From the NCBI GenBank assembly GCA_047638695.1, contig JBLINY010000003.1:21035-85034 (forward strand): a stretch of 64,000 nt of DNA, given 5' to 3'. A program made the translations under genes and the position numbers. A model generated the notes under the pieces. It saw nothing but the letters and a program-made list of their open reading frames with translations. It did not search any database and was not told the DNA's origin. Shown here piece by piece: positions 4,163-14,880 of this stretch. Source of the DNA: Acidimicrobiales bacterium. Lineage in GTDB: Bacteria > Actinomycetota > Acidimicrobiia > Acidimicrobiales > SZUA-35. How positions within the stretch are numbered: position 1 is the first letter of the stretch; every line of letters begins with the position of its first letter.

Positions 4163-6553
4163 TCACTGGTTCACCCGCACGACGGTTGAGGTCGTTGGGC
4201 CCTTGCTCACGACGATCTGTACCGGCATGCGTTCGGCCAAGGCTTCGATATGGGTGACGATGCCGACCAGCCGGCCGCCGGATGAAAGTTCCTCGATGGC
4301 GCTGGCGACGACGTCGAGGGTTTCGCCATCGAGGGTGCCGAATCCCTCGTCGAGGAACATCGAGCCCAAGCGCGGCGCATCGACCGATGCAAGCTCGCTG
4401 ATCGAGTCGGCCAGAGCGAGGGCCAAGGCGAGGGAGGCAAGGAAGGTCTCGCCGCCTGAGAGCGTGCGAACATCACGCTGCTCGTCGGCGTTGCGATGAT
4501 CGAGAATTTTGAACACCCCGTCGTCGGAAGCCAGTGAGTATTGGCCGGCCGACAGTTCGCGAAGTCTCACTGTGGCCCGGGCCACCAAATCGTCCAGCGC
4601 CTCGCTGAGCAACCATCGCTCGAAGCCCTTCGCACCGAGATGTTGACCGAGTGCGTCGTTGACTTGCTTCGATTCGCGCAGGGCTGCGATCTCCGATCGC
4701 CAGTCTTCGAGTTCGTCGAGGCGAGCCACTGTCTGCTCGATGTCAGCGGCAACCCTGGCCTGTTCGCGAACCAACTGCTCGGGTAGTGACTCGGGGGTTG
4801 GGTCGAGACCGAGCGGCGTCGCTTCAATCGCCAGCTCCTCGAGCGACCGCGTCTTTTCGTTCTTCCCCTCGGTTCCCGCTTCGAAAACAGACGCCCGCGC
4901 CTGGCGGCGCTGTTCGCCGATGTCGTCGGCCCAGGTCTGCAGCGCCGACCAGTCGTCAGAGAGCGACTCTCCAGCAGGGGCAGGCGGCTCGAGAGTGGCC
5001 ACTCGATCGCGCTGGCTACCGAAGGCGAAACGCTGCTGACGCTCCCCTTCCTCGGCCTTGTTCACCCCAGCTTCGGCGGCCCGAACGACAGCCTCCAGCT
5101 TGCGAGCCGCCTCCGTGAGTTCAACCACACGATCGGCAGCGTCGATGGCCCGGCTAAGTGCTTCTTTCAGGTCGGCGGGTACGTCGGCCAGCGCGACCTC
5201 GGCCTGGGCATGAGTCTTTCGTTTCTCGTCCAATCGAACTTCGGTACGGGAAAGGGTTGTACCGGCCACGTTTGCCATCGATCGCAGCTGCTTGTTCGCC
5301 TGTTCAGCCTCGGCCCAGGTGGCCTCGGCCGCTGCGAGTTCAGCTGACGGGTCATGATCGGGCACAGCGCCGACCTCTTGGCGACACACGGGACAGGCCT
5401 CGCCGACAACAAGTGTCGAGATCCAGTCGGCGGCCCGGCTACCGAGACGGGCCGTATCACGCGCCGCGACCGCAACCTGAAGCGATTCGTCGGCGTCGGC
5501 AACAGCAGCCTCGGCCGAAGCCAAAGCGGCGCGGGCCACGGCCGACTCGGCAACCAGGGCCGTCATCTCGTAGCCCAATTCGGCGAGCTGCTTCGACGCG
5601 ACGATCTGGGCCTGAAGTCGGGCGACGTCACCCGCTGACTCAGCCGAGACTCGGGCCTCATCGAGCGCCGAGCGGGCGTCGTCTAGTCCGGTGCGCCCTT
5701 GTTCGAGGCCTTCTCGGAGCCGTTCCAACTCAGAGCTGTCGGTCGCTATATGGGCCGGCAGCTCGACGGATGCCAGCTTCTCGAGATCGGCATCGACCGT
5801 TGACAGCTCGGTACGTAGCTCGACCAGCCGTTGTTCGATCTGGTCGATCGACTTCAGTCGCGGGACGGCAAAGCGACCCAGCTCGGAAAGTGCGTCGGCC
5901 CGCTTCTGGTGATCGGCCAGCACCGTCGGGCTGATGTGGGCGTAGCGGGACAGCTGTCCTTCAAAAACAACGGCCTTCTGTTCGGCCTCGCTGGCCAGCC
6001 TGCGGGCCCGGGCACCCATCTGGCTGTAGATCTCGATATCGAGCAAACGTCGTAGGAGTTTCTGCCGGCTGGCCGGGTCGTCCTTCAGAAACTGAGCGAA
6101 CAAGCCCTGGGGAAGGACGACCGTACGAGTGAACTGGTTGAAATCGAGGCCGAGCAGTGCTTCGACCGCGTCGGTGAGTTCCTTGGCGCCGGATGCGAGC
6201 ACAGGTGACTCGTCGTCCGTGGCCTCAGCCAACTCGAGCCGGGCTTCCCTGGTCGTTGCCCCCGTCTTGGTGCGACGCACGATTCGCACCGCGATATACG
6301 TGCGACCGTTCAGCTCGAAGTCGAGCCGCACCCGGGCTTGGTTCGCGGCCTGGTTGATGACGGGAGCGACCAATCGCGCGTCGTCATAGCGCGAGACCGA
6401 GCCGTACAGTGCGAACGTGATGGCATCGATGATGCTCGACTTGCCCGAGCCGGTGGGACCGACGAAGGCCACGAGATCGGCATCGCCAAAGTCAATTTCG
6501 GTGGGTTCACTGAACGTCGAGAACCCCTCGAGCTCGACCCGCAGAGGTCTCAC
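4163..6553 (-). CDS. sbcC: SbcC/Rad50 SMC-type ATPase
   Basis: Walker A GPTGSGKSS, long coiled coil with a CPVC zinc hook, signature LSGGETF, Walker B FLDEGFG. Overlaps sbcD by 4 bp. Confidence 0.92.
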   Translation of the reverse strand: MRPLRVELEGFSTFSEPTEIDFGDADLVAFVGPTGSGKSSIIDAITFALYGSVSRYDDARLVAPVINQAANQARVRLDFELNGRTYIAVRIVRRTKTGATTREARLELAEATDDESPVLASGAKELTDAVEALLGLDFNQFTRTVVLPQGLFAQFLKDDPASRQKLLRRLLDIEIYSQMGARARRLASEAEQKAVVFEGQLSRYAHISPTVLADHQKRADALSELGRFAVPRLKSIDQIEQRLVELRTELSTVDADLEKLASVELPAHIATDSSELERLREGLEQGRTGLDDARSALDEARVSAESAGDVARLQAQIVASKQLAELGYEMTALVAESAVARAALASAEAAVADADESLQVAVAARDTARLGSRAADWISTLVVGEACPVCRQEVGAVPDHDPSAELAAAEATWAEAEQANKQLRSMANVAGTTLSRTEVRLDEKRKTHAQAEVALADVPADLKEALSRAIDAADRVVELTEAARKLEAVVRAAEAGVNKAEEGERQQRFAFGSQRDRVATLEPPAPAGESLSDDWSALQTWADDIGEQRRQARASVFEAGTEGKNEKTRSLEELAIEATPLGLDPTPESLPEQLVREQARVAADIEQTVARLDELEDWRSEIAALRESKQVNDALGQHLGAKGFERWLLSEALDDLVARATVRLRELSAGQYSLASDDGVFKILDHRNADEQRDVRTLSGGETFLASLALALALADSISELASVDAPRLGSMFLDEGFGTLDGETLDVVASAIEELSSGGRLVGIVTHIEALAERMPVQIVVSKGPTTSTVVRVNQ

Positions 6554-7769: not shown

Positions 7770-8186
7770 TTAGTCGAAGGTGACTTTGAGTTGGGGCTGT
7801 CCAATACGGTCGAGGACCGAGTTCAGCACCCGGGCGTCGTCGTCGAATCCGAGGACGTCGGAAATGTCGCCGTCAGCATCGTCCATGAGCAAGAAGTACT
7901 CGACCGCGCCGCGGACAAGCGTCCGCTCGTCGTCACCGAAAACAACTTCAAGGCTCAGCAACGAATGCAGGGCAGTGGCAATCTCCTCGGCCGTCTCGAG
8001 GTCGGTGCGATGATCGGCCATCTGCTTCACCTGATCGAGATGCATGGCGACGACATCGTCGAGTTCGAGCAGCTCCTCTGACGACGTCGCCAGGCACAGC
8101 CGACGGAACCGTGATTGCTCGTCGGGCTGCAGCAAGGCATCGAGATCGATCGCGGGAACGTCGAGCGGCTCTGGTTGGTCGGACAC
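7770..8186 (-). CDS. small acidic hypothetical protein embedded in the herA-mre11 operon
   Basis: 138 aa, strongly Asp/Glu/Leu rich, no TM segment or signal peptide. Lies 18 bp after the herA stop and 59 bp before the sbcD start. I recognised no family. Confidence 0.55.
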   Translation of the reverse strand: MSDQPEPLDVPAIDLDALLQPDEQSRFRRLCLATSSEELLELDDVVAMHLDQVKQMADHRTDLETAEEIATALHSLLSLEVVFGDDERTLVRGAVEYFLLMDDADGDISDVLGFDDDARVLNSVLDRIGQPQLKVTFD

Positions 8187-8204: not shown

Positions 8205-9911
8205 TCAGGCCAGTCCGGCAAAGGGGTCATCGGCGACACCTGCGGCCGCTGATGGGCTGGCCGCTTCGGCCGAACGAGTCGCCCATGAGGGAAAGGGAAA
8301 CTCGACCAGGAGCGGGACCGGCAGCAGCGGTTGGGCCACATACATCGAACCGGGTTTCAGGATGGTCGAGCGCGCCCGCTGCACCGGCGGCAGAAAGCCG
8401 TATTCGTCGCGACGAGACTCGGCCGGGTCGAGGCGGCCGACAATTCGAATGGCCGAGTTGGAAACGATCCGTCGCTCGACCTCGCTGGCCGTCTGCTGAG
8501 CACCAATGAGAATGATGCCCAACGACCGCCCTCGCTCGGCGACATCCAGCAGGATCTCCTTGATCGGACTGGATGAATCTCGGGGCGCATACTTATTCAG
8601 TTCATCGAGCACGACCAGCTGAAGCGGCTTGGCAATGCCGCTGGCTTCCTTCGCATCGAAGGCTTGCCGCAACACGACCCCGACCACGAAGCGCTTGGCT
8701 CGGTCGTGGAGCGAGTGAATGTCGATGACGGTGACCTGATGGCCATCGAGATCGACGGCGTGCTGATCGGCGTTGCCGATGTCAGCCCTGATCAGTTGCT
8801 CGACGTGTCGTCGGGCCGAGGCCAACCGCCGAACAAAGGCGTTGATGGTGCCGCCGCCAACGGCGCGGCCCGTCCACCGCTGGTCGGCGGGTTCATCGGC
8901 GTCTTCGGGAATGAGCTTGTCCTCGATGGCGTCGAGCAAATCGCTGAAGGTCCGTATGGTGCGCCCTTCGAAACTCACCGCGCCATCGCCGGCGGCCGGG
9001 AGCTGGGCCAGCTGTGCGGTGACCGACTGGACGACGATGGTGTATTGCTGCCGCTCGTCTTCGGAGTCGGCGAACAAGAACGGCAGCAGCTGTTGATGGC
9101 AGAACTGCTGGATGGTCCAAAAGAAGGGACTTACGCCGAGTGACCGCGAGCCGGTGGCCGGCGTGGCGTTGGCGTCGCCTTTCCGAGGCGGTGCCAGGAT
9201 GCCGACGTCTCGGAAGGGCGCCGGTTCCAGGCCCAGTGGCTTGTACCGGTCGGCGGCCTGCTGGTCGAGCTGGCTGTTGGCGTGATCGAGAAAGAGTAGA
9301 TCTTCGCCTTTTACGTTGAAGATAAGGGCCTTGGTGTTTGCCGCCTCGGCGCCCAGTACGCCGGAGTTGAACATGGAATACAGCAGAAACGTGGCGTAGC
9401 TGGTCTTGGTGGCCACACCGGAGATTCCAGAGATGTTGATGTGGGCACCCTTGGTGCCATCGATGAAGTCGAGGTCGAGAAACACCGGCTCATCGTTGCG
9501 AGAGAGTCCGGCCGGTAGTCGTCGTTCGACCCCGTCGAACGACAGCGCAACGTCACGTTCAAGATCTGTTGCCAACCGGACGGCCGCACCCGGCAGCGGC
9601 GGAAGCAGGATCTCGGGCTCGAATCGGGTGGGCTGCACCAGAGCCGCCTCACTGACCTCGGCCGGCAGGATGCCGTCGGCGATCAAGAACACATCGCTCT
9701 GGAAGCGCGCCCCCTCATGCCGGGCCCGGACTTGGCTGACCAGGCCGAACATTTGGACGAGCTGTCCATCGGGCAGGATCCGGTCGACGGCGACGACATC
9801 GTCTAGTTGCAACGTGTGCGCTGGGTCGACGGCCACCCAGAACTCCAGCGGTGTCGCATCTTCGATCCCGATGACCCGCCCAACCGTTGGCTTCGCCCCA
9901 GTCAGCTCCAT
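8205..9911 (-). CDS. herA: HerA-like (DUF87/FtsK-HerA superfamily) ATPase/helicase
   Basis: 568 aa with an N-terminal HAS-barrel-like segment (GRVIGIED..FWVAV..VVAV), P-loop GISGVATKTS and Walker B LVVLDELNKY. First gene of the operon. Confidence 0.75.
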   Translation of the reverse strand: MELTGAKPTVGRVIGIEDATPLEFWVAVDPAHTLQLDDVVAVDRILPDGQLVQMFGLVSQVRARHEGARFQSDVFLIADGILPAEVSEAALVQPTRFEPEILLPPLPGAAVRLATDLERDVALSFDGVERRLPAGLSRNDEPVFLDLDFIDGTKGAHINISGISGVATKTSYATFLLYSMFNSGVLGAEAANTKALIFNVKGEDLLFLDHANSQLDQQAADRYKPLGLEPAPFRDVGILAPPRKGDANATPATGSRSLGVSPFFWTIQQFCHQQLLPFLFADSEDERQQYTIVVQSVTAQLAQLPAAGDGAVSFEGRTIRTFSDLLDAIEDKLIPEDADEPADQRWTGRAVGGGTINAFVRRLASARRHVEQLIRADIGNADQHAVDLDGHQVTVIDIHSLHDRAKRFVVGVVLRQAFDAKEASGIAKPLQLVVLDELNKYAPRDSSSPIKEILLDVAERGRSLGIILIGAQQTASEVERRIVSNSAIRIVGRLDPAESRRDEYGFLPPVQRARSTILKPGSMYVAQPLLPVPLLVEFPFPSWATRSAEAASPSAAAGVADDPFAGLA

Positions 9912-9952
9912 TCCAGGACGCTACTGCCCCCCAATGACAGTCCCGCCGAGAC

Positions 9953-10135
9953 AGGAGCCAGCAAGAGAACCGTTAGCCAGATCGCCGCAGGCGTGAGGCG
10001 ACAGCCGAACCAAGCAGCACACCCCGCGTGAGGCTGGCGACGGAGGAGCCAGCAAGAGAACCGTTAGCCAGATCGCCGCAGGCGTGAGGCGACAGCCGAA
10101 CCAAGCAAAAGAGTAAACACCCCCGGCGCTTTCGG
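9953..10135. repeat. tandem duplication, 91-bp period (two identical 64-bp cores at 9953-10016 and 10044-10107)
   Basis: The core aggagccagcaagagaaccgttagccagatcgccgcaggcgtgaggcgacagccgaaccaagca occurs twice, letter for letter. The flanks (gcacaccccgcg vs aaacacccccggcg) are still alignable. Located 42 bp upstream of the herA start. Confidence 0.9.
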
Positions 10136-10164
10136 GCTTTCGCCTTCATGCTACGGGGGTGTTT
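10104..10164 (-). terminator. intrinsic terminator (minus strand)
   Basis: Minus strand reads AAACACCCCCG...(inner GGCGAAAGCCCGAAAGCGCC)...CGGGGGUGUUU followed by ACUCUUUUGC. The outer stem is 11 bp. A U-rich tract is present only in the minus orientation. Confidence 0.7.
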
Positions 10165-10654
10165 GAGTCGGTTCGAGCATCCACCCACGTCGATCTCCAC
10201 GGCAGTACCGTTTCATTCAACGAGTTTCCACTTCCCGTCAGGCCAAGGCTTGGCGGGAAGTTTCCGTTTTAGCGTCACCGCGGGTTTCCCCGGGTTTGCT
10301 GAGGGCCTCGTTCATCACAGCGGTGCTGTTCCAGCTGGTTCCGGGTTGCCCCTTCATCAGCTGATGCCGTCCCGCTGTCCTCACTCGGACCTCTTACCAG
10401 TTCGAGCGGTGGCCAAAGCCTCCGGTCTCCCCGTGGCTCGAACGCCGAAGCGCCGTTGCCGGATGGGATGTCTTTCCTGGGCAGGCCTTGTTTGTGCCGT
10501 TTTCATCTCTTCCGACCAGGTCTGTCACTCGGCCCGAAGGCTTGGTGGGCTTTCCCGGTCTTTCGAGCTGTTTCGTGCGCTCACTCCGCTTGCTTGTTGG
10601 TCATCCAAGTGCCCACGAACCTATGGGTCAAGCGGTTCGTCCGAATCCCCAGGG

Positions 10655-10727
10655 TTGTCCGCAGCATTTCTTAGTTGTCCTCAGAATTGGCGATGTTGCC
10701 CCCATGTTTGCCCCCAAGTTGTCCACA
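10655..10727 (+). promoter_or_regulatory. phased array of DnaA-box-like 9-mers
   Basis: All on the same strand: TTGTCCGCA (10655), TTGTCCTCA (10675), TTGCCCCCA (10696), TTGCCCCCA (10708), TTGTCCACA (10719). The last is a perfect match to the actinobacterial DnaA box consensus TTGTCCACA. Spacings are 20, 21, 12 and 11 bp. Confidence 0.4.
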
Positions 10728-10963
10728 AGCGCCGGCACGCGAGCAGGCGTGTCAGACCATCGGCCGCCGGGTCGCCAAATTTTGGGCCGAGCCTTGTACT
10801 ACTCCCTGGAAAGGTTCCGACAATTGGGGGCAGCGGGTTGCAGAAGCAGCTCGCCAAACCACCAAAACCGGTTCGGAGCCGGACTCGTACCCATGCTCGG
10901 TGGACGGGCTAGTCGAACTCGACCGGTCCGTCCTCCGCGTATGTCTGCTGACTACTCCGACCG

Positions 10964-12874
10964 TCAGGCGTGGCTGGCCCAGGTGGCGTACATCTCGGCA
11001 TAGTGACCACCGGCGGCCACCAGCTCATCGTGCGATCCCAGTTCGATCAATCGACCATCGTCGATGACCGCAATCCGGTCGGCTCGCATGGCTGTGGCCA
11101 GGCGATGAGCAATCACGATGGCGGTGCGGCCTTCGAGAACAACATCGAGCGCCCGCTCGATCACCGTCTCGCTTCGTAGGTCAAGATTGCTGGTTGCCTC
11201 ATCCAGCACCAACACTCGTGGTTGGGCCAGAAAGGCTCGGGCCAACGCCAGGAGTTGTCGCTCTCCTGACGATAAGGACGAGCCCCGTTCGTGGACGACG
11301 GAATCAACGCCGTTCGGAAGCCGATCGATGAGTTCGCCAAGGCCAACGGTACGGCAGGCGGCCTCGATCTCTTCGCTGCTTGCATCAGGACGACCAAAGG
11401 CGATGTTGTCGCCAATCGTTCCGTTGAAGAGGAAGGGCTCTTGCGGAACTACGCCGAGCTGCTGACGAAGCGAGAACAGGGTGAGGTTTCTGAGGTCATG
11501 GCCGTCGATACGAACCTCGCCCTGGTCGGGGTCGTAGAACCTGGTCACCAGCTTGGCGACCGTCGACTTGCCGGCACCGGTTGGGCCAACCACAGCGATC
11601 GTCTCGCCGGGCGCAATCTGCAGATCGAGGTTGTGCAGCACTGGCTGTGATGGGTCGTAGCCAAAGGTCACGCCGCGGAGTTCGATATGCCCGGCGACCG
11701 GAGGCAGCGTGGAGGCATCGGCGCGCTCGACGACGCTCGGCTCGGTTAGGAGCAGCCCGCGGAGCTTGCCGACGGCCGCTTGGCCCTGTTGGTAAGAGTT
11801 GTACAGCTGCACGAGCTGTTGGATGGGGGCAAAGAAGGCGGTGAGATATAACAGAAACGCGAAAAGCTCACCGACGGTCAGACTCCCGTTCAGGACCATC
11901 CGGCCGCCAATCAACAGCAGGACGGCTTGGCCCAGAACACCGATGGCCTCGTTGGCTGGCCCGTAGAAGGCTCCGACGCTCGAGGCGTACACGTTCGCAT
12001 CTCGGTGCTCGCCGACGACGTTGGCGTGGTTGATCACGTTGTGGTGCCGGCGGTTGCTGGAGGTGATCACCCGCATACCGGCGAGACTCTCGGAGAGGTC
12101 GGCCAGGACGTCGGCAATACGGTCGCGCACCCGGCCGTAGCCCCGTTCCGAAGCCCCTCGGAACCACACGGTCAGCGCCATCATTCCCGGCAATACGACA
12201 ACCAGCGTGATGAGCGCCAACGTAGGGCTGAGGATCAACATCACGATGGTGATGACGACAAGCGTGAGGCCCTGGACCGCGAGGTTCACCAGACCGTCCT
12301 GGAAGAGGGCAGCGAGAGCGTCGATATCGCTCGTCATCCGGGTCATCAGCCGGCCGGTCTTTTCACCGGTGAAGAAGTCGAGCGACTGTCGCTGGAAGTG
12401 GGAAAATACCCGCACCCGCAGCTCGTACATGAGCTTCTCACCGAGCCGGCCGGTGTACGCGATGCGCGCATAGGACGCTGCAGTATTCACCAGCACCGAC
12501 GCCAGGTATGCCAGGCCGACCAGCCACAACACGTTCGTATTGCGAGGAACGATGGCGCGGTCGATACCAATTTGGGTGAGCAACGGACCGGCTTGAAGGG
12601 CCAGGGTTTCGATGACCACCAACACCATCGCACCGACAAGTCCTAATCGATGGGGTTCGAGGAACACCCGCAGAGTGAAAGGTCGGCGTTCGTAATCTGA
12701 TTGCGAGAACGCAATGTCGGGGGTTGGATGGTCCGGCTCTTCGGACAGGATCTTCTCGGCCCGCTCGGCCAGCTCAGTTGGAACGCCGGCGAAAGGCAGA
12801 CCGGCTGCTGCGCTGGTAGCAGCGGCTGAAGGCCCACCTCCGAACGGCGACCCTGACGGTGCACCCCAGCTCAT
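10964..12874 (-). CDS. ABC exporter, fused permease/ATPase (MdlB/MsbA type), subunit 2
   Basis: 636 aa with a six-TM domain plus NBD: GPTGAGKST, LSSGERQ, LVLDEATS. Confidence 0.9.
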   Translation of the reverse strand: MSWGAPSGSPFGGGPSAAATSAAAGLPFAGVPTELAERAEKILSEEPDHPTPDIAFSQSDYERRPFTLRVFLEPHRLGLVGAMVLVVIETLALQAGPLLTQIGIDRAIVPRNTNVLWLVGLAYLASVLVNTAASYARIAYTGRLGEKLMYELRVRVFSHFQRQSLDFFTGEKTGRLMTRMTSDIDALAALFQDGLVNLAVQGLTLVVITIVMLILSPTLALITLVVVLPGMMALTVWFRGASERGYGRVRDRIADVLADLSESLAGMRVITSSNRRHHNVINHANVVGEHRDANVYASSVGAFYGPANEAIGVLGQAVLLLIGGRMVLNGSLTVGELFAFLLYLTAFFAPIQQLVQLYNSYQQGQAAVGKLRGLLLTEPSVVERADASTLPPVAGHIELRGVTFGYDPSQPVLHNLDLQIAPGETIAVVGPTGAGKSTVAKLVTRFYDPDQGEVRIDGHDLRNLTLFSLRQQLGVVPQEPFLFNGTIGDNIAFGRPDASSEEIEAACRTVGLGELIDRLPNGVDSVVHERGSSLSSGERQLLALARAFLAQPRVLVLDEATSNLDLRSETVIERALDVVLEGRTAIVIAHRLATAMRADRIAVIDDGRLIELGSHDELVAAGGHYAEMYATWASHA

Positions 12875-14880
12875 GACTGTTCGCTTTCGTCTCTGTCAGC
12901 TTCGTCTCTGTCAGCTTCGTCTCTGTCAGCTTCGTCCATGTGGGCCAGTACTTCGGCATAACGAGGTTCGGTGTCCATGAGCTCGCGGTGAGTTCCTGAT
13001 GCGGCAACACGTCCCGCCTCCAACAGCACGACCCGATCGGCCAACGCAATGGTCGACAAGCGGTGAGCGATGATCAGCGTTGTCCGATTCGCCAGCTCAG
13101 CGTTCAGCGCCGTGTGGATGTTCTCTTCGACTCGCACGTCGATGGCGCTGGTGGCGTCATCGAGCACCAGGATCTTGGGGTCGGCCAGCAACGTTCGGGC
13201 GATTGCCACTCGCTGCCTCTGGCCACCGGACAGGGTGTATCCCCGCTCGCCCACCACCGTGTCGTACCCCTCGGGTAGGGCATCAATGAAGTCGTGAGCC
13301 TGGGCTGCGGTGGCTGCCGCGATCACATCGTCTCTCGAGGCATCAGGCCGGGCGTAGGCGATGTTGTCGGCCAGACTGACCGAGAACAGAAAAGGCTCAT
13401 CGGTGACCATGCCGAGGTTGGCCCGCAAACTGGCCTGCGAGAGATCACGAACGTCGTTACCGTCAACCCGCACCGCACCGTTGTTGACGTCATAGAAGCG
13501 CCCGAGAAGCCGAGCAATCGTCGTCTTGCCACTGCCGGTTCGGCCGACGATGGCAAGGGTCTCGCCCGGCTCAACGACGAGCGAAAAACCGGACAACACG
13601 TCTGGGGCCCGCGTGCCGCCGGGTGCCGACTCAGCAGCGTTTTCGCCAGCAGCGGTCGCAGAAGCAGCGTCATCGGCGGCGCCGTCCTCGGCTGGCAACG
13701 GTGTGCCATAGCCGAACGTCACGTCATCGAACTCGATCCGTCCGACTGGGTCGGTCAGATCTGCGGCATCGGGGCGGTCAACAATCTCGGGCGCCTCATC
13801 GAGCACTTCAAAGATGCGATCGGCCGATGCTTTGGCCCGCTGACCCATCATCAAGAACAGACCCAGCATCCGAAATGGGGCTTGCAGCATGGTGACGTAT
13901 GCGGTGAAGGCGAACAACGTACCCTCGGTTACTTCACCCTCGATCACGAGCCAGCCGCCGTAGACCAGAACCAATAGCGTTCCGAAACGGGGCAGGTTCT
14001 CGATAAAGGGGTTGTAGCGGGCCCGCATCTCGACCGTCCGGACGGTGGCCCAGCGCAGGGATGTGGCCGACTTGGCCAGCTGGTTGATCTGCGCTCGCTC
14101 GGCCGCAAAAGATCGCACCACTCGCACGCCGTTGATGTTCTCGTCGACGGTGGTCGCCACGTCAGCCAGGCGAGACTGCACGATCCACGACAACGGGAAC
14201 AGTTCGTTCCGCAGCTTGACACCTAGCCAATAGACGCCGGGCAGCGGAACGATGGCTACCAACGTCAGCGGCACATGGATCGAAAGCATGAAGGCGAACG
14301 CGGCCACGAACATCACGCCCGTCATGGCGATGAGAGGCGCGAAGGTGAGGTAGATCTGGACCGAGCGGATATCGCTGTTGGCTCGAGAGATGACCTGACC
14401 AGACTGCGTGCGGTCGTAGTAGCTGAATGACAGTCGGGTGAGGTGTTCGTACAACCGATTACGGAGATCGCTGTCGATCTGAAACGCCGTTCGGTACAGC
14501 CCGTAGCGATAGATGAACGTGATGCCGGCCCTGGCCAGTCCGATGATCAGAACAAGGACGACAAATCGGCCGAGCGGAGCGCTGCGGTCGGTGAGTGCTT
14601 GGTCAATGCCTGCACGGATCACCGCAGGAAGAGCAACCTGCAGAAGGTTGGCAATGAGCGCCAGGAACAGCGTGCCGAAGAACATCACCCGGTGAGCCAG
14701 GACGATCGGAAGTACTCGTCGAATCCATCCCAATGAACGGTCGGGATCGACGTTGCCTCGTGGCGGGTCGTAGCGGCGCTCTACGGCAACCGGGGCGAAA
14801 CGCGGATCGGCGGTCGCGTCAAGGTGCTCTGCATCGGCTGCCACATCCACAGACCGACTGTACGGCGCTCGTGAGGGCAA
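12871..14880 (-). CDS. ABC exporter, fused permease/ATPase, subunit 1
   Basis: 669 aa with GRTGSGKTT, LSGGQRQ and LVLDDATS. ATGA overlap with the partner gene. The NBD carries an Ala/Gly/Asp-rich insert, and the C-terminus is the repeat EADRDEADRDEADRDESEQS. TTG start, so the start is uncertain. Confidence 0.88.
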   Translation of the reverse strand: MPSRAPYSRSVDVAADAEHLDATADPRFAPVAVERRYDPPRGNVDPDRSLGWIRRVLPIVLAHRVMFFGTLFLALIANLLQVALPAVIRAGIDQALTDRSAPLGRFVVLVLIIGLARAGITFIYRYGLYRTAFQIDSDLRNRLYEHLTRLSFSYYDRTQSGQVISRANSDIRSVQIYLTFAPLIAMTGVMFVAAFAFMLSIHVPLTLVAIVPLPGVYWLGVKLRNELFPLSWIVQSRLADVATTVDENINGVRVVRSFAAERAQINQLAKSATSLRWATVRTVEMRARYNPFIENLPRFGTLLVLVYGGWLVIEGEVTEGTLFAFTAYVTMLQAPFRMLGLFLMMGQRAKASADRIFEVLDEAPEIVDRPDAADLTDPVGRIEFDDVTFGYGTPLPAEDGAADDAASATAAGENAAESAPGGTRAPDVLSGFSLVVEPGETLAIVGRTGSGKTTIARLLGRFYDVNNGAVRVDGNDVRDLSQASLRANLGMVTDEPFLFSVSLADNIAYARPDASRDDVIAAATAAQAHDFIDALPEGYDTVVGERGYTLSGGQRQRVAIARTLLADPKILVLDDATSAIDVRVEENIHTALNAELANRTTLIIAHRLSTIALADRVVLLEAGRVAASGTHRELMDTEPRYAEVLAHMDEADRDEADRDEADRDESEQS
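12886..12937. repeat. 15-bp tandem repeat x3.4 at the C-terminus of an ABC gene and the gene junction
   Basis: ttcgtctctgtcagc repeated at 12886, 12901 and 12916, with a partial fourth copy. Encodes (EADRD)x3 on the minus strand. Confidence 0.95.

Follow-up and report, generated by a model that had tools for sequence, protein, structure and literature searches.

An apparently undescribed family of structured RNA genes in Acidimicrobiales, predicted downstream of a phased repeat array

Introduction

In a 64-kb stretch of DNA from an Acidimicrobiales bacterium (contig JBLINY010000003.1; the whole stretch is referred to as the window, and all coordinates are positions in it) the stop of an ABC transporter gene (10964) and the start of a gene called herA (9911) are separated by a gap of 1052 bp, which raises the question of what, if anything, this region (9912-10963) encodes. 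The genes around it all lie on the minus strand, in the order of two ABC transporter genes (12871-14880 and 10964-12874), the gap, and a four-gene cluster for a weakly HerA-like ATPase (8205-9911), an Mre11-type phosphoesterase, a Rad50/SbcC-type ATPase and a NurA-domain protein. An earlier note on this DNA had picked out the gap as the only long one and placed in it a candidate novel structured RNA of about 0.85 kb, read from the minus strand and ending at a terminator near 10105. Of all stretches free of open reading frames (ORFs) in the ORF list of the window, the gap is indeed the longest. Soil, fresh water, sea water and wastewater sludge all harbour abundant Acidimicrobiia, which are seldom cultured, and no paper on non-coding RNA of this class turned up in a literature search.

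The analysis presented here indicates that the locus is very probably a minus-strand RNA gene, and that positions 10107-10727 probably form a self-contained gene for a structured non-coding RNA, whose family has so far been found only in uncultured Acidimicrobiales. Conservation, covariation and strand signs agree on a novel structured RNA of the minus strand that ends at the 11-bp terminator near 10105, as had been proposed, whereas its length has to be revised: the predicted RNA measures about 490 nt (10597 to 10107), 10598-10727 holds the predicted promoter and a repeat array, and 10728-10963 is spacer.

Composition and conservation among related loci

The strand asymmetry that had drawn attention to the region is real but shorter than supposed. 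The plus strand is T-rich and A-poor, with an AT skew between -0.18 and -0.51 across about 10100-10700 (A 12.7% and T 27.2% over 10108-10596), and the minus strand is correspondingly purine-rich over the element (A 27%, G 32%). The asymmetry ends at about 10700, and 10700-10963 shows an AT skew of about 0 to +0.09 without conservation. By alignment, the spacer at 10728-10963 lies outside the RNA family, although it was part of the block originally delimited.

A search for HerA relatives gave 80 loci, nearly all labelled as Acidimicrobiales, Acidimicrobiia or Actinomycetota metagenome-assembled genomes (two bear Verrucomicrobiota-type labels). With the gap sequence as query, blastn and iterated nhmmer found homologues of the element in about 18 of the 80, and by nhmmer about 25 related Acidimicrobiales contigs or loci carry it; the block is hence conserved beyond this genome. 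L-numbers below denote the related Acidimicrobiales loci or contigs compared with the window. The element is single-copy in the window and at every locus that carries it. Nine metagenome contigs match a degenerate 46-nt promoter/repeat pattern, one of them being the same contig as L002, and no viral contig matched it. A viral or mobile origin was rejected on this ground, and eight viral matches to a shorter left-hand pattern failed the covariance model described below.

The plus-strand alignment of the homologues (A1) shows a conserved left zone (about 10107-10275), a conserved right zone (10603-10727) and, between them, a variable middle of 150-600 nt. The latter can be aligned only among the closest relatives (window, L001, L002 and L006), with large indels in the others. 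The predicted length of the RNA in the relatives ranges from about 330 to about 790 nt.

Covariation in the 3' domain

The evidence that carries the assignment comes from the conserved 3' domain (features and coordinates are collected in Table 1). Eighteen sequences were aligned in the minus sense with MAFFT (A2) and folded with RNAalifold, and a covariance model (R1) was built from this alignment. In the consensus, hairpin hp2 comes first, then helix Px, which encloses a 3-bp hairpin; an unpaired GGUGGAU follows, and last comes a terminal hairpin of 10-11 bp with a capped inner hairpin. Standard pairs occupy 94.7% of the 628 cells, and 21 of the 35 pairs have changed on both sides. None of 500 shuffles matched these values, and sliding the 3' partners by 1-3 columns lowers pairing to 32-49%. 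R1, which scores the window at 155.8 bits, also finds three members outside the seed (L087 with 88.1, L085 with 69.7 and L051 with 31.7 bits), whose stems differ in sequence yet are 90.1% paired, with 13 compensatory pairs. RNAalifold, the pair counts and R1 therefore all point to abundant compensatory change.

Concerning the individual helices, hp2 is replaced in L051 by a 9-bp hairpin of entirely different sequence. Helices 2 and 3, which make up the Px region, show compensatory change in 4/7 and 2/3 pairs, e.g. CG-to-UA-to-AU swaps. In the window, L001 and L002 this region contains a U-G pair that the plus strand could form only as a C-A mismatch. Helix 4, the terminal one, is 100% paired with 7/10 pairs compensatory, and its U-G cells, read from the opposite strand, turn into A-C mismatches. 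The apical loop of the inner hairpin is GAAA, GCAA or UUCG in most relatives that have it, with L008, L009 and the L035 clade differing. On the minus strand only, the terminal stem is followed by ACUCUUUUGC (U-tract 10107-10110), so that the 11-bp-stem intrinsic terminator described earlier is present in the orientation described. A G+C-rich hairpin and a U-tract thus stand together as in intrinsic terminators, and U-runs occur behind the stem in most clades.

In L008 only, an 11-nt perfect inverted repeat (5536-5546 / 5814-5824 of that locus) links the GGUGG/Px region of the RNA gene to its own promoter spacer. A long-range helix CCAYC/GGUGG, which recurs in minimum-free-energy folds and in a four-sequence consensus, is at best tentative, since its duplex energies are no better than those of shuffled upstream sequence.

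Strand assignment

The non-Watson-Crick cells of A2, read in the minus sense, comprise 21 G-U against 9 A-C, the latter mostly in the poorly aligned top of hp2. Only in this sense is the terminal helix fully paired, do the capping loops read GAAA, GCAA or UUCG, and does a U-run stand behind the last hairpin. Together with the invariant TTGACC of the predicted promoter, these signs assign the RNA to the minus strand. Hairpin hp2, when read on the plus strand, resembles a terminator; the remaining evidence favours the minus sense. Compensatory changes in four helices, exceptions of the G-U type and GNRA or UUCG loops on one strand only are what selection on an RNA, rather than on DNA, leaves behind.

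Coding potential and known RNA families

A 254-codon ORF is open on the plus strand and, as the earlier note had judged, does not look like a protein gene. It has no Pfam match, and its sole match among 5.8 billion proteins is itself, on an identical JGI contig (JGI 3300075540). Since every stop codon needs an A, and A is scarce on the plus strand, a long open frame is expected there; in L002 about 150 codons stay open in all three plus-strand frames. When the window is compared with L001, L002 or L006, substitutions favour none of the three codon phases (p = 0.85-1.0), and only 0-3 of 8-15 indels are multiples of three. On neither strand is an ORF of at least 25 codons conserved across clades; short matches occur in several frames and coincide with conserved nucleotides. 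Neither homologue, nor Pfam domain, nor codon periodicity thus speaks for a decayed gene.

As to known RNAs, the whole window gave no match to Rfam 15 at the gathering score, 9800-11100 searched at E up to 10 gave only three matches at chance level, all to eukaryotic families, and in seven homologue loci no Rfam match falls within the element. ARAGORN found no tRNA or tmRNA. The absence of a known family is thus upheld.

The 5' and central region

The four minus-strand hairpins listed in the earlier note are all found where it had placed them (GCC-UUCG-GGC at 10532-10541). The segment GGGGCAACC of the CAGCUG..CAGCUG helix element is conserved in the window, L001 and L002, with the outer helix replaced by CCACG/CGUGG in L002. 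In these alignments the 5' and central part of the RNA is lineage-specific and rich in hairpins capped by GNRA or UUCG loops.

Of the two diverged modules of about 290 nt that had also been suggested, the 13-nt anchor pair at 10245/10537 is present, while the duplication itself does not rise above chance. In a local alignment the two halves reach a score of 45, where dinucleotide shuffles give 43.1 +/- 6.9 (114 of 300 shuffles score as high or higher). The alignments in L001, L002 and L006 likewise fail to surpass shuffles, and an internal duplication was rejected. A hammerhead-like CUGAUGA..GAA at 10332-10363 was likewise discarded, as its 5' arm overlaps the would-be core, it is missing from L001 and L002, and Rfam gives no match.

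Predicted promoter and extent of the RNA

The -35 hexamer TTGACC is invariant in 25 of 25 aligned family members. The last T of the -10 hexamer is invariant in A1, and the spacer measures 16-18 nt. The relatives have TATGAT, CATAGT, TAGGGT, TAAGGT, AAGGAT and similar -10 hexamers. TANNNT or NANNNT fits 9 of the 13 distinct hexamers; position 2 is T in the window, L001, L002, L008, L009 and L012. From about 7 nt past the -10-like hexamer to the terminator U-tract, the predicted RNA spans the region whose conservation nhmmer detects in the ~25 loci.

Two resemblances were noted in this region (10609-10652 and homologues). The TTGACC(A/T)GGGAAAAC of relatives such as L002, L006 and L007 resembles CTGACCAGGGAAAAT, the window's own spacer being different, and CTGGGGATT (also in the window) resembles CTGGGGATTTGACT. 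Both CTGACCAGGGAAAAT and CTGGGGATTTGACT occur in a Mycobacterium smegmatis rrnB promoter fragment (PMC4191392, supplement). The likeness may be due to chance or may reflect a feature common to stable-RNA promoters.

Table 1. Features of the element and its surroundings, with positions in the window.
Feature	Position	Strand	Remarks
Predicted non-coding RNA, ~490 nt	10107-10597	minus	5' end predicted at 10595-10598, 3' end at U-tract 10107-10110
Conserved 3' domain of the RNA family, ~175 nt	10102-10278	minus	alignment A2 and covariance model R1
Terminal hairpin, intrinsic-terminator-like	10115-10164	minus	11-bp stem 10154-10164 / 10115-10125; apical GGC-GAAA-GCC 10135-10144
Near-invariant unpaired GGUGGAU	10179-10185	minus	16/18 A2 sequences; GGUGUAU in L088, GGUGGAC in L009
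Helix Px (10217-10224 with 10186-10193)	10186-10224	minus	encloses small hairpin ACGG-UACUG-CCGU (10199-10211)
Hairpin hp2, ACUUCCCGCC..GACGGGAAGU	10230-10261	minus	helix 1 of A2, 8/13 pairs compensatory
A-rich linker AAAACGGAAAC	10262-10272	minus	5' of hp2 on the RNA
Hairpin CGGG-GAAA-CCCG	10281-10292	minus	GCAA in L001, L007, L081; GAAA and a G-U pair in L002
CAGCUG..CAGCUG helix around GGG-GCAA-CCC	10332-10363	minus	closest relatives only
Central block GAGACCGGAGGCUUUGGCCACCGCUCGAACUGG	10397-10429	minus	nearly identical in window, L001, L002, L006
Hairpin GGCGC-UUCG-GCGUU	10441-10454	minus	GCAA loop in L001, CUCG loop in L002; compensatory pairs
Hairpin GCC-UUCG-GGC, 5' part	10532-10541	minus	GUC-UCCG-GAC in L001; closest relatives only
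Predicted promoter	10603-10631	minus	-35 TTGACC (10631-10626), 17-nt spacer, -10-like TTGGAT (10608-10603)
Six direct repeats in one orientation, candidate DnaA-box-like operator	10643-10727	plus	just upstream of the -35
Repeats 1-3	10643, 10655, 10675	plus	GAATCCCCA, TTGTCCGCA, TTGTCCTCA
Repeats 4-6	10696, 10708, 10719	plus	TTGCCCCCA, TTGCCCCCA, TTGTCCACA
Unconserved spacer, repeat array to ABC transporter stop	10728-10963	no strand	without similarity to any relative and without strand asymmetry

Upstream repeat array

Upstream of the promoter the conserved right zone consists of six direct repeats, spaced by 12, 20, 21, 12 and 11 bp, i.e. by one or two helical turns. The consensus forms across the family are AATCCCCAG, TTGTCCCCAG, GTCCCCAG, GTCCACCGG, TTGTCCACCGG and CCACAGG, and the register of the array to the -35 is fixed in all relatives. 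Five of the ten exact matches to TTGYCCNCA in the window fall within the array, where 3.9 would be expected over the whole window, and clusters of at least three such boxes occur solely at the element in 1.08 Mb of related DNA.

The sixth repeat has the sequence TTGTCCACA, which in M. tuberculosis and S. coelicolor is the DnaA box of high affinity (PMC4285127, Table 1). Three of the nine 9-mers in the 64 kb that have at most one mismatch to TTGTCCACA / TTATCCACA lie here within 73 bp, as in a DnaA-box cluster. Judged by this resemblance, binding of the repeats by DnaA is a tentative possibility. Direct repeats one helical turn apart also suit a response regulator of the OmpR/PhoB type. Compared with the MtrA motif GTCACAGCG, listed in PMC4285127, the repeats show loose similarity only.

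Neighbouring genes and orientation

The position directly upstream of the herA operon, which the earlier note had pointed out, is no functional tie. Comparison of 9912-10963 with L002:5184-6000, L008, L009 and L012 shows that these relatives have the same ABC2-ABC1-[element]-herA order with the element in the opposite orientation: there the RNA is read towards the ABC gene, convergently with it, and away from herA, with the array placed between the two divergent starts. Elsewhere the neighbours themselves vary. The array-side gene codes for a Cof-type HAD-IIB hydrolase in some loci and for a class V aminotransferase in others, and elsewhere it is herA or resembles leuA/cimA (a name given from its sequence motif only); on the terminator side a gene ends convergently in L002, L008, L009, L012 and L035, and an unrelated co-directional gene follows in L006, L007 and the window. 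The element thus keeps no constant position upstream of one gene class on the same strand, as a riboswitch or cis-acting leader would. Given this variation of neighbours and orientation, the RNA is a separate unit, most likely trans-acting.

Compared with the syntenic relatives, the RNA unit is inverted in this genome. Breakpoints of the inversion were not found; only about 40 nt next to herA align with the relatives, and an identical JGI contig (L098, corresponding to 9663-11104) shows the arrangement of the window. A programmed switch is improbable, given that no inverted repeats flanking the element are shared with the relatives.

The interval from the RNA terminator to the herA start contains, in addition, a perfect 64-nt direct repeat with a period of 91 (9953-10016 and 10044-10107) that recurs neither elsewhere in the window nor in the loci retrieved. 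The local inversion may have left it behind, or it may provide herA with a new upstream region. In the most divergent clade (L083:1075-1200, L085:3247-3370 and L087:1569-1700) a conserved stretch precedes the array-adjacent leuA/cimA-like gene; it reads SSFRRAR in the extended frame and may act as a conserved leader or an attenuator.

Some observations concern the flanking genes alone. The product called HerA (8205-9911, minus strand) matches only NCBIfam HerA_Thermprot, at 16 bits, and has no Pfam match at E up to 0.01. Its label depends on the Mre11, Rad50 and NurA neighbours, and its P-loop region, GISGVATKTS, is a non-canonical Walker A. Between it and the Mre11-type gene lies a 138-codon acidic ORF (7770-8186, minus strand) that matched no Pfam or NCBIfam family. 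The upstream ABC protein carries C-terminal EADRD repeats; they are encoded by a perfect 15-nt tandem repeat of 3.4 copies (12886-12936, TTCGTCTCTGTCAGC) just before the start of the next ABC gene (12874), which overlaps the upstream stop.

Weight of the evidence and alternative explanations

It should be noted that several points weigh against a self-contained RNA gene. Family-wide covariation is limited to the 3' domain, and the middle part is supported by four related sequences, which is weaker. Single-sequence folding is modestly better than shuffles on both strands (z of -2.6 for minus and -3.4 for plus) and prefers neither, so that folding of single sequences and hairpin density decide nothing and the comparative evidence is decisive. 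Both RNA ends are predictions from sequence. The -10 of the window lacks the usual A at position 2, a generic consensus promoter scan called no promoter here, and the U-tract, offset 4-5 nt from the stem, is weak in the L035 clade. The CCAYC/GGUGG duplexes have a mean z of -0.75 against shuffles, and this pairing is tentative only. GGUGGAU reads ATCCACC on the plus strand, in the same orientation as the repeat boxes, and might be a seventh DNA box. Lastly, most repeat copies depart from TTGTCCACA at position 7 or 9.

Some of these points lead to the first alternative, in which the element works as DNA, a DnaA-box cluster serving as replication origin or as a titration or reactivation site of the datA/DARS kind, with hairpins that are incidental or act at the DNA level. 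The six same-orientation boxes, their helical spacing and resemblance to TTGTCCACA (PMC4285127), the additional ATCCACC at 10179-10185, the uniqueness of the cluster within the related DNA and the inversion of the whole element in this genome all fit such a site, and yet we consider it unlikely, because it leaves unexplained the four helices maintained by compensatory change, the exceptions that are G-U and not A-C, and the tetraloops present on one strand. A chromosomal origin was rejected in particular, as there is neither a GC-skew switch at 10.5 kb nor a switch in gene orientation, genes on both sides being on the minus strand for more than 20 kb. Moreover, no dnaA or dnaN is among the flanking genes identified, the flanks vary between relatives, and no AT-rich unwinding element is obvious. 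Titration of DnaA by the array could coexist with the RNA gene.

Equally unlikely is that the family represents the Acidimicrobiales counterpart of Ms1, the RNA of Actinomycetes that binds the RNA polymerase core (PMC4191392, PMC9130861), or of 6S RNA. Ms1 is likewise a stand-alone actinobacterial RNA of a few hundred nucleotides with a terminator and a primary-sigma-type promoter (PMC4191392), such as is predicted here, and in seven loci a HAD-family hydrolase gene stands 5' of the element, which loosely recalls the linkage of Ms1 to a HAD-IB hydrolase gene (PMC9130861). The hydrolase of the L035 clade is, however, of the Cof-type HAD-IIB subfamily (TIGR00099, 160.6 bits for a cutoff of 137), whereas HAD-IB (TIGR01490) scores 19.5 bits for a cutoff of 98.3. 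Rfam gives no Ms1 or 6S match even at E up to 10, the nhmmer profile of the family does not match Ms1 of M. smegmatis or S. coelicolor, and blastn returns only noise of 8-24 nt; Ms1 homologues, for their part, are too weakly conserved to be detected by covariance models across orders (PMC9130861). The consensus folds are multi-branched instead of forming a rod around a central bubble, pairing of the 5' end with the 3' region is inconsistent, and 330-790 nt exceeds the sizes of both Ms1 and 6S. Identity with Ms1, which the HAD neighbour had brought up, was rejected on sequence, HAD subfamily and fold.

Very unlikely is a cis-acting part of a neighbour's transcript, either a long 5' leader belonging to the herA operon or the 3' untranslated region of the ABC transporter gene. 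In the window the element is co-directional with both genes and between them, so read-through is conceivable, but in L002, L008, L009 and L012 it is antisense to both, it has other flanks elsewhere, and it carries a conserved predicted promoter and terminator of its own.

The chance of a mobile or invertible DNA element, similar to a miniature inverted-repeat transposable element or an inverton, is smaller still. The orientation does differ between this genome and its syntenic relatives, a 13-nt imperfect inverted repeat (9924-9936 / 10821-10833) flanks the element and the 64-nt duplication abuts it; against this stand the single copy at every locus, the lack of conserved flanking inverted repeats, the absence of the promoter/repeat pattern from viral contigs and the independent contig in the window's orientation. 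Neither repeats nor a recombinase mark it as an inverton, the latter having been looked for among the immediate neighbours only.

Finally, a decayed or unusual protein gene, the 254-codon plus-strand ORF (which a gene caller also predicted on the JGI contig) or a small minus-strand one, has next to no credibility, having neither family nor homologue, no periodicity, indels out of frame, three open frames in L002 as the scarcity of A predicts, and cross-clade peptide matches that are short and scattered over several frames on both strands.

Proposed mechanism and significance

What emerges is, on the sequence evidence, a real and apparently undescribed family of structured RNA genes in Acidimicrobiales. 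RNA polymerase with a primary-type sigma factor would start at the TTGACC/-10-like promoter, make the RNA of about 490 nt and stop at the hairpin and U-tract (10164-10107). The six TTGYCCNCA repeats would most likely bind an oligomerising DNA-binding protein that sets promoter activity, the candidates being DnaA, with its actinobacterial box TTGTCCACA, or a response regulator of the OmpR/PhoB type. The RNA would act in trans and not on a neighbouring gene. Most likely its invariant loops and GGUGGAU would let it bind proteins or serve as a scaffold; base-pairing with targets through the same elements is the second option. Our best guess is therefore that the RNA regulates in trans, probably by binding protein, and that DnaA or a response regulator sets its synthesis; confidence in any specific function is low.

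A more speculative and rather doubtful version is a gate operated by the replication initiator, in which DnaA oligomerises on the six phased low-affinity boxes and switches the structured RNA on or off, GGUGGAU being the box-strand sequence. If true, it would couple the status of replication initiation to an RNA regulator, or the RNA would be a decoy or feedback element for the box-binding protein. We know of no such DnaA-gated structured RNA in bacterial chromosomes.

Concerning its wider meaning, the family is a well-supported new structured RNA of 330-790 nt, with a covariance model that can be used on whole genomes. If the repeats are DnaA sites, the locus allows a direct test of a replication initiator controlling an RNA regulator; if a response regulator binds them, they define the operator of that regulator. 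More generally, an RNA gene can be masked by a long open frame when the strand opposite to it is poor in A, as this case illustrates.

Comparison with known systems

The array invites comparison with datA and DARS of E. coli, with the DnaA-box clusters of B. subtilis and with DnaA-regulated promoters. Like these, it is intergenic and made of same-orientation, mostly imperfect 9-mers spaced by helical turns. Unlike datA, DARS and the B. subtilis clusters, it is locked in register to the -35 of a gene for a structured RNA, and its binding by DnaA is putative only.

Ms1 (MTS2823 / scr3559) is the nearest functional analogue. It shares with the present family a highly structured RNA, a conserved promoter of primary-sigma type (here a predicted one), a hairpin terminator and the lack of a cis target, and differs in having no similarity by sequence or model, a rod-like fold, a HAD-IB neighbour and a smaller size range. 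To our knowledge no phased array of six repeats lies upstream of Ms1. 6S RNA is a trans-acting structured RNA with its own promoter, as is proposed for the present one; there is no Rfam 6S match here, the present RNA has 2-4 times the length of 6S, and its fold shows neither a closing stem nor a central bubble.

With respect to the large or ornate non-coding RNAs of bacteria (raiA/ModT, OLE, ROOL and GOLLD), the family differs in having no Rfam match, only about 175 nt conserved family-wide and a narrow known distribution. It shares with them what makes such RNAs recognizable: ORF-free, purine-rich and tetraloop-rich intergenic blocks, covariation, and discovery by comparative analysis.

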